Below are positions 3,001 to 12,000 of a stretch of DNA of 52,110 bases, one piece after another (within the stretch, counting starts at the first letter, position 1; each line of letters starts with the position of its first letter). Source of the stretch: Candidatus Zixiibacteriota bacterium. Lineage in GTDB: Bacteria > Zixibacteria > MSB-5A5 > UBA10806 > 4484-95. Location: positions 40,203 to 92,312 of the forward strand of contig JAOZPT010000004.1 of the NCBI GenBank assembly GCA_029932605.1. Direction: 5' to 3'. A program made the position numbers.

Positions 3001-6000
3001 ATTTATATAAATGGGCAAGTCTTTTATTTGCCTCTTATGTTTATTTCACCTATGCCGTTAACATTCAGTTCAATTTTCGACTCGCCATTACCGATAATAC
3101 CCTCCAGACGGTTTCTTTCCATAGCCAGTGGTTTAATTGAAAAACCACTGGTATGGATACTACCACCCTCATCAACACTCAGTATTAGTCTTGCCGACAC
3201 ATCGGGAACCAAAGATATATTGATACTACCATAAGTATTATTGACGAAAAGCCGGGCCTCGTCAATATTCATATTGTCCAGATTAATAGGAGAGTATTTC
3301 GTCTCAATCATGTTAATGCCATGAGTAAAGTTTACATTTTCAAGGTCTATCGGGTTATAGCTGGTTTCACAAACAATCTCACCCTTAATATTCTCAGCCT
3401 TTATCTTGCCATAGCTGGTTCTCAATACTACACTTCCAGAACCAGCATCTATATCACTAGCTATAATACTATCATAACTCGTTAATACTTTCACAGGACC
3501 TTCTATATTATCCAGCATGATGTCACCATAAGATGTTTCAAAATATCCGGGGTTCTCACTAATAGTTAATCTGCTGGCCCTGATCCTACCATAGCTCGTT
3601 TCAACTGATATTTCACCCTCAATTCCGGAGAGTTCCACCTCAGAATACGAGGTTTTAACAACCAATCTGCCTCTAACATCTTCTACCCTTATTGGGCCAT
3701 ATTCATTATCAACCCTGACACCATTGAAAGGGCCTAGCAGTACGATGGTACTATACGAATTACGGGATTCAATTTCAAAGTTTTCGGGTACCCATATTTC
3801 AAAATTCACACCAGCACTGTAATCGCTTCCCTCCCAAGGTGCGCTGATAGGTGTTAACACACGCAAACGCAGATTCTCATCAGCAGAAGTGTTATCGCCG
3901 AGTTTTATGTCAATAAGGTCAACAAATCTCTGCTCCTGCTTTAATGATTTTGCATTAGCCCACTTGTTAAATTCCACTTTGACTGTTTTATCCGTATGAG
4001 TTTCTACAAGTATATCGCACTTAAGGTTTTGGGGTGTCAGTATTTTCAAAGCGGTTTTATCATCAGCCGACGCCGTTAATTCTCCATTGGCCAAAATTGA
4101 CTGCTGGCCGTAAACGTTTCCTCCAACTACAAACATCATCGTTAATATCGATAAAATAGTTCTCACTAACGCTCCTTCTTCCTGTCCGATAAAATATACG
4201 TTAATTTTACATAACGGTTTCGTTTTGTTCCTTTAGCCGGTTATAAGTTTTTGTCATACAATAATCTCAAAACCACTCGGCCAACCTCATTCAAGCTTTC
4301 AACAGAGCATTTATCCGGCGTATCGGAAAGTTTATGCCAGTACTTGTAATCCATATCTATAATCACAGCCGCACTAATACCAACCTCCTGAAAAGGTCTA
4401 TGGTCATCCAGAACGGCATGCTTAACATAGGGATAAAAATGTGATGCCTCCTCCAACTCGGCTGCTCGCCAGATACGTTTAACCAACCAATCTGCATATT
4501 TCTGTGAATAATACTCCTTGTAAATTTGAAGGTCTGCATCTCCAATCATATCCAGTAAAATCACGTAAAGAGGATGATAACCGCCTATATTTTTAACGAA
4601 ATATTTGCTCCCCAGCAACCATTTGTCAGGTTTACCAAAATCTCCATAATCCTCACCATCAAAGAAAATGATATCAACACCTATGGATGGTCGATATTTC
4701 TTTAATGTCTCGGCGATTACAAGAAGCACTGCTACTCCGGAAGCACCATCGTTGGCACCCGGAACCGGTAAATGATGAAGACTTGAGTCTGGCTCTTCAT
4801 CTACCCAGGGACGGCTATCCCAGTGGGCACAAAGCAGAACTCGCTGGCTGTTATCAGGATTATATGAGGCAATTATATTGGTCAGGTAAAGGGTATCGCC
4901 GGTATCTTCGTCGTGATAAGTAAATTTCTGGCGCCGGCAGACGTCTGTGGTTGCAGCTAACTTATCATAAAGATAATCCTCACAATCGTGGGCAGCCTTG
5001 CTGTTGGGTACCCGCGGACCAAAATCACATTGCTGCTTTAAATAGATGAACGCCTTGTTCCCATCAAAATCGGGAATGGTCTGATGACCACATCCTGCCA
5101 AAATAAAAACAATCAAAACAAGTAGCCATAATTGCCAATATCTCTTACGCATTAAAACCTCAGTTCAGTCCATATGCCCAATTCACGGACATGTCTTTTA
5201 CGTTGTTGAACTTTATCGTTAGAGTCATACCAGCGGGCTTGAAGACCGCCGGTGATCTTGGCCGAGAACCTATAAGATAATCTGGGTTCAATACCGGTCT
5301 CAACAGTATTCCGGTCAACCGTTTTACTGCCTGATTGGAAATACCACGATTTCCTGAAATTTTTATTGATGTCCAATGACATCGTAAGCTGGCTTTCAAA
5401 CTTGACTTTCCCAAAAAGTGGGATATTAAGCCCTTGGGGTGCTGTCAATGAGTAACTCAACGAAAGCTTAAAGGTCTTGTCCTGGTTATGACTTACTCTA
5501 CCATTATCGCCCTGCTCACGAAGGCTTTCGGTCTTTTTCTTGCTGTAGTCATATCGGATGGTAGCTTTAACCCCGTTTTTCAAACCAAGATTCAAACCCA
5601 GAAATGGCGAAAATGTTTGCAGGGTATTTCTGTCGTGAAGCTCACCGGTGGTGGCATTGCTAGATACATCAACTTTCCGGGAGAAATTAGTCTGGATGGA
5701 TGCAGTCCTTGAAAACAACTTTATAAACGGAAATTTTTCAATTCCGGAAAAGCTTACATCCAGATGCGGAAATTCTACGGATTTACTCTTTATCGGGTTA
5801 TTGGTTGAATGAGTTATGCTCTGCCGAAACTTATATGACGAGTTAATATCTAAATTCCTTATCAATGATAAACCCGAACTCAATGAATAATCCCTGGTGA
5901 AAATCGATTGGTCTCTTGTACCCACACCAACAGACTCTTTTTGCCGGACATTAGTCTTATCCGCGAAACCAAGAGTGTAAAGCCAGCCTGGCCTATCATA

Positions 6001-9000: not shown

Positions 9001-12000
9001 CCTGGGCCGGTATTCCCTGGTAGTTTCTTTACGATACATACCGGCTAAGGATACCCATGAATTCTCGTTAATAGCATACTTGGCCGATAAACCGTATAAT
9101 GACTTCTTCTCAGGTTGGAAAAAGGGAGCATACTCAAAATCCACGGTGATGTTTGCTGCCGGGTCTAATGCTTGCTCGGACAAAAACGTTATCATGCCCA
9201 GCTGGTAATCGATAGTGTAATCTACACCCTTCTGAAGGATACGGCCATCACCCATTCTGACAACCTCAGAATTCTCGATAATATTTATCCTGCGCAAACT
9301 AAATGAATTTCCCCTCTGCATTGTCTTAACGTAGATGTAATACTTTTGACCCTGAATGACATCGGAATGCCCATAACGATGTGTATATATATCCGTATTT
9401 GGAGAATTCAAGGCCGTGTCAGCAAAAGGCTCACTTTCAGGGAAAATTAAATGTCCTCGGGCAACGTCTAAATTGTAGTTGTTAAAATCAAAAAGGCAAT
9501 CAGAACTGGTATCCGATGGGTTCGTATTATCGTATCTATCCAGACCTAAAAGCGTTATATAGCAAACACCATCCTGGTCGAGGGTATCTGTCAATAAATC
9601 ACCATGTCCCTTGTAAATCTGCAGATCGAACCCTGCTGGGTCTAAGTTGCGGCTGTTAAGATCGTACACATTTCTCCATTCTAAATCCCATGTAGCCAAG
9701 GCGGTATCCGTTGGTTCACTGGTTTTAATTAACTTTAATATTACAATCGTATCGGGTGGAGTTGTTGTTGTGTCTACATAAGAAAGATTACCTTCCTTGA
9801 ATACATACGTAGTATCGCTAATCGTGTCCTTATGAGCATATTCGATATAAGCGGCAAGTATATCGGAATCCTGGAGGCGTTGGTTAAGGTTAAGTATAAC
9901 AAACCAACCCGAGCGAATGATATCGTATTCCGTTTCGGGGATTCTCTTTAATGGGCCGTCATAATATTCTCCACGAGCACTATCTATATTTGTTATATAA
10001 TATAAAGTATCTTGCTGTCCTGTCTGCCAAGGCTCTGGACCCCAATGGGGATCAACACAGGCTATACCATCTATATCTTTATCCAGGTCGGTTCCCCTTC
10101 TGTAAAGAACCACATTTAACAAAGAGTCAAGTTGGGGGTCGTAATTCTCATACGGCTTGGCTAGCCAGAAATAAACGTTATGCAAATATTGATAGTCTAG
10201 AATTTTGTTTGCAGAATCCTGGGCGCCCGCCTTAAACGTCGATTTTTCAGAGGAACCTTTCTCTTGAGAGGTAATCATCGTAAGTTCCATATTTCCGATT
10301 TTTGCAGTAGCCTTTATACCAAATAACCCCTGAACGTTTTCCGAATAACCGATAAATTGAGAATTGGGTAACGACAGGTTGGTATTACCCGCCTCGATCG
10401 TTTGAAGGATCTCATCCTCCTCACCCTTGTATCGAAGTTTTAATGTGTTAGCGAGTTCGGTATCTCGGTTGGAATCCTGGTCAACCTCAATATGGATTTT
10501 CGAACCAATATCACCCCTGATTTTAAAGCGAGAGGTTTGTTCCATATGCAGAGAAGGAAATTTAGACTGTTTAAATGTTCCTGTATTGACAAGGTTATCC
10601 TCCCACTCGGAACGCCCTGAAAATGAAATCCTTCGGTAACCTGTAACAGTTATTCTCGGTCCCCCCTCACCGATTATCGACCTTACCGATTTGGGAAGAG
10701 GCCCTATAGAAATCGGTATTTCAAACCCTTCAGAGCGCTTACCCTGGCCTTTAGTGCCACTGAATGTGGCCATATCATAAATCCAGGAATCGAACACTTT
10801 CTTGTTGGCTCTCCAATAAACATAATCATCAAACCTCATAACCAATTGATTATAAAGCGAATTCTTCCCAACAATTAAAGTCAAGTGAACATAATCCCTT
10901 TCGGGTGTGATTTCTACCGACCAGGTATATGTGTTTTTATTGAATTTAAGAAAATGGGACTCTGGTTTATTTAAAGATATTCCTCCAGAGGAATCTGGTA
11001 AGTCTCTCGGAGGTACAAATCTGTCTTTAATAGAAAAAACGACATCTAAATAGCCAACCGCAGGAAGCGCAATCTCAGGGCTAGCTAAGATCGCCGTTGT
11101 TATTATCATCACCCTTATGATGGGCTTAATTTTTATAAAAATCACCGCCAATTACTCTCCAGAGTAATTTCTCTAATCCTTAGCTATTTCCCTAATAACC
11201 TCCTTTTTCTAAGGTTCAATCACCAATAATTCATACTCAAGGTCAACACCATATTTTTCCAAGACCTTATCATGCATTATCCTTGCCAGTTTTTTTACAT
11301 CAGCCGCTGTTGCACTACCGGTGTTAACGATTATATTGCAATGCTTTTTAAAAACCTCCGCTCCGCCTATTCTTAACCCTTTTAGCCCTGCATTTTCGAG
11401 AAGTTTGCCAGCCGATAACAGTTTTGGCTTTTTTACGTTTTTAAATACCGAACCAGCAGACCCCTCTGTTAAGGGATGTTTGGCTTTACGTAACTCAAGA
11501 TAGCTTTTTATCTTATCGGCTATCCTACTCCTTTCGCCAGCTTCAAGTTTGAAACTTGCCGAAAGGATGAGCTCGGGTTTATCCTTAAGCCTTGAGTAAC
11601 GATAACCAAATTCGAAGTACCCGTTCTTTACGATCTTGACTCTGCCATCGATCCCGTAAATAACTGCCGACTCTAAAACATCAGCAATGCTTTTCCCGAA
11701 GGCTCCTGCATTACCGTAAATTGCACCTCCAACGGTACCTGGTATGCCGGCAGCGAATTCAAACCCCGATAGAGAATCTTTCATGGTGGCATCAACAAGG
11801 TCATTAAGCAGTGCACCGGATTGAGCTGAAACAACATCACCACTGACAACATACTCACGGCACTCATCCTTTATAACCAGACCGTTATAACCTTCGTCTG
11901 AAAATAGAATATTAGAGCCACCGCCCAAGACAAAAAAGTTTAGTTTGTTGGTAATAGCCAGATAAAATGCAGTCGCTAACCGACCAGGATCACCAGCTCT

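Follow-up and report, generated by a model that had tools for sequence, protein, structure and literature searches.

Type IX secretion genes without the GldLM motor or GldKN ring in Candidatus Zixiibacteriota, and a TonB-type domain ending SprE

The GldLM motor and the GldKN ring are treated as core to type IX secretion, i.e., to type IX secretion systems (T9SSs). Ton and Tol-Pal, in turn, are force transducers, and myxobacterial Agl-Glt is a further known system close to them. Among described T9SSs, the Extended Translocon of Flavobacterium johnsoniae consists of SprA, PorV, SprE, and SkpA (6H3I, 8GL8). There, loading of cargo into SprA and PorV is energy free, and it is the release of PorV-cargo that needs the motor, with substrates remaining trapped without it (PMC10994853). 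Also described are the PorKLMN-PorG-PorW energy chain of Porphyromonas gingivalis and the GldJKN track (PMC8754138, PMC12635249). Melioribacter and Ignavibacterium, by contrast, are credited in one sentence with PorV, SprA, and Plug but with no other T9SS protein (PMC11705866).

The window considered here is the whole stretch of DNA analyzed, 52,110 nucleotides of Candidatus Zixiibacteriota contig JAOZPT010000004.1 (positions 40,203 to 92,312). Its T9SS gene is sprA, found there among the following neighbors:

4241..5152, minus strand: probable lipoprotein resembling peptidases, directly at the sprA stop codon; weak aminopeptidase matches under cut-off; at 48/79 related sprA loci
5152..11151, minus strand: sprA/sov, T9SS outer-membrane translocon, 1999 aa; TIGR04189 at 731.9 bits (cut-off 200), PDB 6H3I match
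11209..12135, minus strand: murB, upstream of sprA, housekeeping context and no T9SS part; TIGR00179 at 214 bits; at 75/79 related sprA loci
12229..12606, minus strand: DUF1844 protein in a recG-DUF1844-murB-sprA run, context only; PF08899 at 94 bits; at 29/79 loci
12809..14980, minus strand: recG, context only; NF008168 at 911 bits; RecG/Mfd-like cluster at 38/79 loci

The sprA gene is a single open frame with Phe as its last residue, and a profile of 19 SprA homologues matches F. johnsoniae SprA (6H3I) at E 3e-155. A homologue is present in 150 of 151 Zixibacteria genomes, in frames near 2000 aa. GC content is 0.40-0.42 on sprA and on all four contigs checked, with 0.41 for the genome. Across the 79 related loci the surroundings of sprA are housekeeping genes, with no motor-like gene recurring beside it. 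A locus search using SprA as the single protein returned one locus.

All T9SS parts besides sprA sit on other contigs of this source genome (G000). They are listed here along with the Ton-type operon discussed below:

C68:42000-45971, minus strand: porU; NF033707 at 687 bits (cut-off 420)
C68:39282-41867, minus strand: porV with periplasmic insert, adjoining porU; NF033709 at 239 bits (cut-off 90)
C56:6595-9099, minus strand: sprE/porW-TonB_C; SprE profile and structure matches
C61:22036-22551, minus strand: skp
C10:64437-67010, minus strand: exbB-exbD-exbD-tonB

The PorV insert is approximately 530 aa, and it splits a match to NF033710 (181 bits, under the cut-off of 250). It is seen in Zixibacteria-type records only; of 50 other genomes, 40 gave a PorV match, and the frames there are 341-447 aa. 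The PorU frame is intact and retains His835 and Cys870 motifs, which I take to be the catalytic ones. A type A sorting domain, as detected with an HMM built for this analysis, ends 69 ORFs on 37 contigs. Of those ORFs that are at least 200 aa long, 55 of 63 possess an N-terminal hydrophobic segment, versus 571 of 1452 other proteins. A relative genome (G036), of which 2.0 of 2.12 Mb (94%) was covered, has SprA, SprE, PorU, PorV, and 26 cargo genes, and a PorX homologue was seen there as well. The survey's finding that SprA, PorU, and numerous sorting-domain proteins (62 in its count) are present in the source genome is therefore upheld. It counted eight PorV/PorQ barrels; nine PorV-family genes were found here.

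Canonical components were taken from a published checklist (PMC4793230). The motor and ring had been described as missing, and this holds over a wider sample than the survey's: At cut-off, GldL (TIGR03513 and PF22827), GldM (PF12081), and GldN (PF19841) are matched in 0 of 151 Zixibacteria genomes, with positive controls at 19/81 for GldL and 5/5 for GldN. GldK, too, is found neither in the source genome nor in the 94% of the relative genome. FGE-sulfatase and PorP/SprF, again as had been claimed, give no domain at cut-off in the source genome, nor do Plug and PorZ. HMMs from 19 real gldK/L/M loci produced only coiled-coil-level matches to the source genome, the best of these (E 0.0015) being an efflux adaptor, and custom GldLM HMMs returned nothing credible from five genomes labelled Marinimicrobia or Bacteroidota, i.e., no divergent GldLM seeds. 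Weak GldL or GldM matches in Zixibacteria and other phyla were opened at 16 loci, proving to be chemoreceptors, opposite-strand frames, or unrelated proteins. Comparison of the envelope core of the source and relative genomes left 544 of 900 proteins.

Relative to the F. johnsoniae Extended Translocon (PMC10994853), there thus is retention of SprA, PorV, a SprE lipoprotein with a finger region, a Skp homologue, type A sorting domains, and PorU, but not of GldL, GldM, GldN (151 genomes), or GldK (two genomes), with Plug, PorZ, and PorP/SprF undetected in the source genome. Differing also from F. johnsoniae, SprE here terminates with a folded TonB_C domain, PorV carries its insert, and SprA is approximately 400 aa shorter. 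Relative to the P. gingivalis chain (PMC8754138, PMC12635249), PorW/SprE, which is proposed to connect the chain to the pore, has been kept, whereas motor and ring are gone and a TonB-type domain replaces the C-terminal, PorN-binding region of PorW. As with Ignavibacterium and Melioribacter, insofar as a single sentence describes them (PMC11705866), translocon genes exist without other core T9SS genes. There, however, Plug is present, SprE is unrecognized, and the sentence proposes no mechanism, whereas here a whole separate phylum is involved. What this gene content represents, very probably, is a working T9SS variant that consists of the outer-membrane half only, that is, SprA, SprE, Skp, PorV, PorU, and some 60-70 cargo proteins, without GldLM and GldKN.

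The survey did err in reporting no PorW. A SprE/PorW homologue exists, an 834-aa TPR lipoprotein (lipobox Cys20) lying below the curated cut-off, i.e., with NF052312 at E 1.2e-35 and 123 bits versus 250, a profile which is matched by 18 of 18 family members. F. johnsoniae SprE (8GL8_I) is the top natural PDB sequence match in a profile search, with three designed TPR proteins ranking above it; a 60-residue PDB search and a single-sequence search with SprE both missed 8GL8. It is also the top Foldseek match to the SprE model (E 8.8e-13, TM 0.53 on target). Residues 378-496, between two long helices, are disordered and resemble the Finger Region of F. johnsoniae SprE (PMC10994853). SprE homologues are found in 41 of 41 Zixibacteria. 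The sprE neighborhood is housekeeping (pyrK-like at 51, pyrD at 48, and sirtuin at 42 of 80 loci), with no recurrent motor-like gene beside it and no exbB or exbD within 4 kb at any of these loci.

The C-terminus of this SprE matches TIGR01352 (TonB) at 28.7 bits, the cut-off being 27.1, and is closer to the operon TonB (32.7 bits) than to TolA (14.0 bits). The tail model has a pLDDT of 94, and in structure comparison TonB-family C-terminal domains take ranks 1-7 and TolA ranks 8-11, with the TonB domain of 9ddz matching best (Z 8.9, rmsd 2.4, 79 aligned). Foldseek gave no match for the tail at E 0.001, and Pfam TonB_C at E 1e-5 missed the source genome's own. The tail is present in 76 of 76 top full-length SprE homologues and, considering the best 150 of 392 matches, at least 80 of 101 Zixibacteria have SprE-TonB_C in a frame of 675-1111 aa. 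Pfam TonB_C ends SprE also in records labelled Latescibacterota, Gemmatimonadota, UBP14, and Tariuqbacter. In a TonB_C tree of 63 rows and 105 columns, with unsettled bootstraps and with one fusion indistinguishable from several, Zixibacteria and UBP14 form a clade with support of 100/100, the roughly 100-residue fold having been kept vertically. By two tests, however, the tail is missing from 50 of 71 complete SprE homologues of motor-less lineages (KSB1, Calditrichia, Marinimicrobia, Cloacimonadota, and others) and present in 21, and the TonB_C tail therefore does not solve the problem in general. F. johnsoniae and P. gingivalis, as well, can both do without the SprE/PorW C-terminus (PMC10994853).

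With force transducers such as TonB and TolA (PMC12204202) this protein shares the TonB C-terminal fold, within a genome possessing an intact ExbB-ExbD-ExbD-TonB unit, but differs in that the domain is borne by a lipoprotein that belongs, in the outer membrane, to a secretion pore and has no inner-membrane anchor. In place of an inner-membrane helix for docking on ExbBD, the SprE N-terminus has a lipoprotein signal and then TPRs. Energizing in the manner of TonB itself is impossible for such a protein, which counts against a Ton-based drive. The tail is the best clue to the energizer.

As to the motor, the ExbB of that unit is single copy and 59-87% identical across 100 of 101 genomes, and the ExbD Asp motif is retained in 34 of 34 ORFs. 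A conserved four-helix membrane protein always precedes exbB; neither it nor DUF6754 has an ESM Atlas family. In the 94% of the relative genome covered, stator-type motors consist only of the Ton unit and Tol-Pal. Had that genome lacked TonB-dependent receptors, this would have pointed to a Ton motor dedicated to the T9SS; four to five are present. Indeed, each of five genomes tested has two to eight such receptors, and the Ton operon thus has an ordinary job. No sprA, porU, porV, or sprE recurs beside the Ton operon at 21 Zixibacteria loci. On one KSB1 contig, from one of five genomes compared, an exbB-exbD-tonB operon converges on the porV operon. A close match to Zixibacteria ExbB exists in only one of five other motor-less genomes (49% identity, the rest 28-37%).

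Given these parts, Sec would carry cargo across the inner membrane, with cargo then entering SprA and binding PorV without energy. The step requiring force would be ejection of PorV-cargo, and that force would come from a Ton-type motor powered by protons, the likeliest candidate being the one conserved ExbB-ExbD-ExbD-TonB unit. Coupling would be at SprE, whose tail, presumably sitting at what in Porphyromonas is the PorW-PorN contact, may grip a β-strand belonging to a partner such as PorV, cargo, or some transducer. An ExbBD motor may be viewed as the likeliest drive, but only tentatively, at somewhat short of an even chance. The SprE fusion and its fold are observed, and partner, coupling, and direction of force are inferred.

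The survey's further claim, that another energizer must drive the translocon, draws on F. johnsoniae (PMC10994853), and ‘must’ goes too far. PorV-cargo might instead exit SprA thermally, with PorU cleavage and covalent attachment making export one-way and with the SprE tail and PorV insert only positioning or tethering parts. Loading costs no energy in F. johnsoniae, PorU keeps its His835 and Cys870 motifs, and none of the candidate coupling elements is shared by every motor-less lineage, the tail being as patchy as described and the insert seen only in Zixibacteria-type records. The trapped substrates of motor-less F. johnsoniae speak against such unpowered release, as does a force-transducer fold, kept vertically across a phylum plus UBP14, for which a reason then is needed; it seems an unlikely though serious contender. 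Much the same standing, i.e., improbable but not negligible, may be given to a motor unrecognizable by sequence, be it of a novel family or a GldLM-like pair that has diverged very far. Conserved membrane proteins without annotation do exist, e.g., that preceding exbB. An architecture scan that picked up all 19 true gldL-gldM pairs, however, yielded 11 pairs in the source genome and seven in its relative, none GldLM-like by eye, and nothing motor-like recurs beside sprA or sprE.

Far less probable is that DUF6754 four-gene membrane cassettes, or a spare MotAB stator, supply the energy. The source genome has five such cassettes (six matches, one cassette being split across two contigs) and two motAB sets, but the latter accompany a full flagellar operon, which accounts for them, and DUF6754 is found in just two of five other motor-less genomes and so cannot be the general motor. 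The relative genome, moreover, keeps its translocon and cargo genes with no match, in the 94% covered, to MotA, MotB, FliF, FliG, or FlhA. That these genes do not secrete sorting-domain proteins at all, or reflect an assembly artefact, is comparably remote. Plug, PorZ, and PorP/SprF are undetected, which speaks for it, but near-universal, full-length SprA, uniform GC, intact PorU, and sorting domains plus signal peptides kept on dozens of genes all oppose this. A complex prediction of the PorV insert (60-595) with the C-terminal half of SprE (495-820) gave neither support for nor evidence against a contact between the two.

The survey was right, by gene content, about a cargo-rich T9SS without detectable GldKLMN. 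Among 50 further FCB-labelled genomes, selected for a SprE-like gene, SprA is present in 49 and GldL in none. Neither this genome nor its phylum is alone in having a motor-less T9SS. A 2025 paper proposes that the T9SS arose within the gliding machinery of Bacteroidota (PMC12635249). That scaffold, shuttle, sortase, and cargo accompany a translocon across sister phyla in the absence of that chain suggests that the pore predates the gliding motor and can use another drive. More speculatively, and doubtfully, the ancestral FCB T9SS may have been a TonB-coupled export pore, driven by ExbBD via the TonB-type domain of SprE, with the GldLM-GldKN gliding chain replacing that drive only in Bacteroidia. 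If true, the gliding-machinery origin would be reversed and a Ton motor would power protein export. The SprE-TonB_C fusion provides a concrete handle on how force reaches the translocon. Caldithrix and Gemmatimonas are cultured motor-less relatives. Culturable as well, going by the one sentence concerning them, are motor-less Ignavibacterium and Melioribacter (PMC11705866).

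The T9SS (type IX secretion system) of Zixibacteria is a real, phylum-wide variant, that is, one which keeps the outer-membrane machinery and among whose members GldKLMN were not found. In the source genome (G000; completeness 99.96%), sprA is a single 1999-codon frame (window 5152-11151, minus strand) with a signal-like start and Phe as its last residue. As the survey's finding had held, both the pore and the sortase are present, with SprA reaching 731.9 bits in TIGR04189 (cut-off 200) and PorU 687 bits (cut-off 420), with F. johnsoniae SprA matched by a 19-sequence profile at E 3e-155 (profile positions 89-1749). 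The neighbours of porU are an 861-aa PorV and an M6-like C-terminal-domain (CTD) protein, PorV-family genes number nine, and one gene, named Skp on the basis of a motif, adjoins an Omp85-type gene. The 62 sorting-domain genes counted earlier are consistent with the 69 ORFs that end in a type A sorting domain according to an HMM built from this genome's own domains, and with the 64 candidates of a separate motif scan.

The porU-porV operon also encodes a 1115-aa barrel-like protein (C68:30090-33437, minus strand) that has no Pfam or NCBIfam match, contains stretches which to the eye resemble SprA, and is conserved in the single-contig Zixibacteria genome G036. In Zixibacteria (C68:34381-35977, minus strand) as in KSB1 (locus L395:5256-6790), porV and the M6-like gene are succeeded by two DUF5683-like paralogues, candidate T9SS parts. 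Elsewhere in the source genome (C81:1861-10803 and C31:275-6848), a TonB-dependent receptor, a CTD-like protein, a PorV-family barrel and a lipoprotein come together in modules, which may represent receptor lids with a dedicated carrier to display them. At C33:27341-35037 (minus strand), the gene after that of a 1960-aa CTD-like protein encodes a PorV-family barrel with fused TPRs, and the pair is conserved in G036.

Absence of the motor and ring, likewise claimed by the survey, was upheld. Among 151 Zixibacteria genomes, 150 of them at least 90% complete, SprA is found in 150 (149 over cut-off) and GldL (TIGR03513, PF22827), GldM (PF12081) and GldN (PF19841) are over cut-off in none. Many close relatives bear an 'Ignavibacteria' label given by submitters. 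Positive controls cover GldL (TIGR03513) and GldN (PF19841): an even sample of 81 genomes from the phylum to which a Rhodothermales-labelled genome belongs gave GldL over cut-off in 19, and GldN was over cut-off in 5/5 of these GldL-positive genomes. For GldK, as well as for GldL and GldM, custom HMMs made from 19 gldK-gldL-gldM loci returned nothing credible from six-frame ORFs of the source genome or from 2.0 of the 2.12 Mb of G036. A further scan, blind to sequence, looked for a protein of two helices with a one-helix protein after it; it recovered 19/19 true pairs and gave 11 pairs in the source genome and 7 in G036, none of them GldLM-like by eye. Plug, PorZ, PorP/SprF and FGE-sulfatase domains were not found at cut-off in the source genome. 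For all of these negatives, very distant homologues may exist.

The further claim that PorW is missing did not survive. An 834-aa lipoprotein (C56:6595-9099, minus strand), with homologues in 41/41 Zixibacteria, is a SprE/PorW homologue. All 18 aligned members match NF052312 (PorW/SprE), the source-genome protein at 123 bits and E 1.2e-35, which is under the cut-off of 250, and generic TPR families outscore NF052312 on these members. The best natural PDB match of the SprE profile is SprE itself (8GL8_I, E 2.6e-21), also the first Foldseek match of the predicted structure. In that model residues 378-496 are disordered and flanked by two long helices, matching the Finger Region of F. johnsoniae SprE as described in PMC10994853. 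Orthology is supported as well by gene order conserved across phyla, with pyrK in 51 and with pyrD in 48 of 80 loci.

This SprE closes with a TonB C-terminal domain: TIGR01352 gives 28.7 bits on residues 740-815, above its cut-off of 27.1, and is hit by 9/18 aligned members. Modelled alone (pLDDT 94) and compared with 48,161 chains, the tail ranks TonB-family CTDs first (Z 8.9-7.4), TolA next (6.5-5.2) and unrelated folds at 4.0 or below; Foldseek again puts TonB-family and TolA first, but at E >0.001. A tail-domain profile reaches 57 bits or more in 76/76 top full-length homologues and 20 bits or more in 79/120 matches, and by hand count of the best 150 of 392 matches the domain lies inside a 675-1111-aa frame in at least 80 of 101 genomes. 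Within the cross-phylum set, 14 of 71 complete SprE frames end in Pfam TonB_C, or 21 by Pfam or domain profile, among them records under the labels Latescibacterota, Gemmatimonadota, UBP14 and Tariuqbacter; in the remaining 50 the tail is of low complexity. In a TonB_C tree the domains of Zixibacteria and UBP14 group as a single clade (100/100), other groups being separate and with relations that the tree leaves unsettled.

The motor-less state, i.e., SprA without detected GldL, extends beyond one phylum. The 80 SprE-like loci were fetched with an alignment of distant SprE-like proteins, and the genomes behind 50 loci whose titles do not name Zixibacteria served as cross-phylum sample, one biased by its selection and of unstated completeness, with at least two members (L233, L244) grouping with Zixibacteria in the TonB_C tree. 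Labels were KSB1, Calditrichia, Latescibacterota, Marinimicrobia, Cloacimonadota, Edwardsbacteria, Delongbacteria, Gemmatimonadota, UBP14, Tariuqbacter, Ignavibacteria, Rhodothermales and unnamed. GldL was over cut-off in 0/50, with SprA_N in 49 and a PorV match at E <1e-38 in 40. This state is already in print, though only in passing, and PMC11285876 allows for a T9SS in further FCB phyla. A literature search, with most subscription papers outside it, returned nothing on type IX secretion in Zixibacteria, nothing on T9SS in Calditrichia, Marinimicrobia and related groups, and, in the portions seen, no description of a SprE-TonB_C fusion. McBride and Zhu, as well as Veith and colleagues, reportedly mention Rhodothermus and related genera in earlier surveys, which may already record missing gldKLMN.

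It is this fusion which renders the question of energy testable. According to PMC10994853, F. johnsoniae cargo loading needs no energy and PorV-cargo release needs both energy and SprE; unpowered release with sortase trapping we consider rather unlikely in Zixibacteria. In P. gingivalis PorW's C-terminal domain binds PorN (PMC8754138), though the PorW C-terminal region is dispensable (PMC10994853). In Zixibacteria SprE that PorN-binding position is taken instead by the TonB-type domain, and the GldKLMN chain is missing. The favoured, if tentative, reading is that a Ton-type motor supplies the force, with the SprE domain forming part of the coupling. Such a motor is at hand: exbB-exbD is flanked by genes for a TPR protein, a 4-helix protein and TonB, in the same order in 21/21 Zixibacteria loci (because of opposite-strand shadows, ORF calling retained the ExbB frame in 16 and that of ExbD in 17), and a single-copy ExbB, with 59-87% identity, occurs in 100/101 genomes. 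The unit has an ordinary use as well, since TonB-dependent receptors occur in 5/5 genomes tested, and no linkage to core T9SS genes was found in Zixibacteria.

Source genome C10:67046-68098 (minus strand), also L133-L152: 4-helix membrane protein of ~230 aa, with conserved N-terminal motif, having the TPR gene on one side and exbB on the other in 21/21 loci
KSB1 genome G153 C279:65500-85400 (locus L395): operon of TPR, 564-aa barrel-like protein, exbB, exbD and tonB, converging on a porV operon

The 4-helix protein, whose ESM Atlas neighbours are Zixibacteria hypotheticals, is a possible Ton-motor accessory subunit. The KSB1 operon differs from the Zixibacteria unit, and exbB-exbD-tonB and porV lie on separate contigs in four other genomes compared.

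That an unrecognised motor drives the translocon seems about as improbable as unpowered release. No MotAB or flagellar genes turned up in the part of G036 that was read (2.0 of 2.12 Mb). A PorV insert has 63 homologues, every named one from Zixibacteria, and the other phyla of the cross-phylum set lack it. DUF6754 was found in 2/5 other motor-less genomes, its cassette appearing transporter-like. The source genome carries five copies of this four-gene membrane cassette, in which three unannotated membrane proteins accompany the DUF6754 protein (C53:96972-109343, C87:52846-56293, C17/C99 ends). It also carries a second motAB pair (C85:5663-7419), outside the window and at a distance from the flagellar operon, which is on C66.

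Other features lie within the window:

15866-16591 (plus strand): AhpD/peroxidase-related protein, interrupted by in-frame TGA 16253-16255; a probable selenoprotein
33510-34196 (minus strand): IS3/IS481-type transposase fragment, under both cut-offs
37714-40689 (plus strand): formate dehydrogenase-N alpha subunit in two frames, 188 aa and 795 aa; in-frame TGA 38278-38280 is most likely selenocysteine
41510-46126 (plus strand): three genes without annotation plus a TonB-dependent receptor, after the formate dehydrogenase genes and near mobA, fdhD and mobB; a possible role is to take up a cofactor or metal
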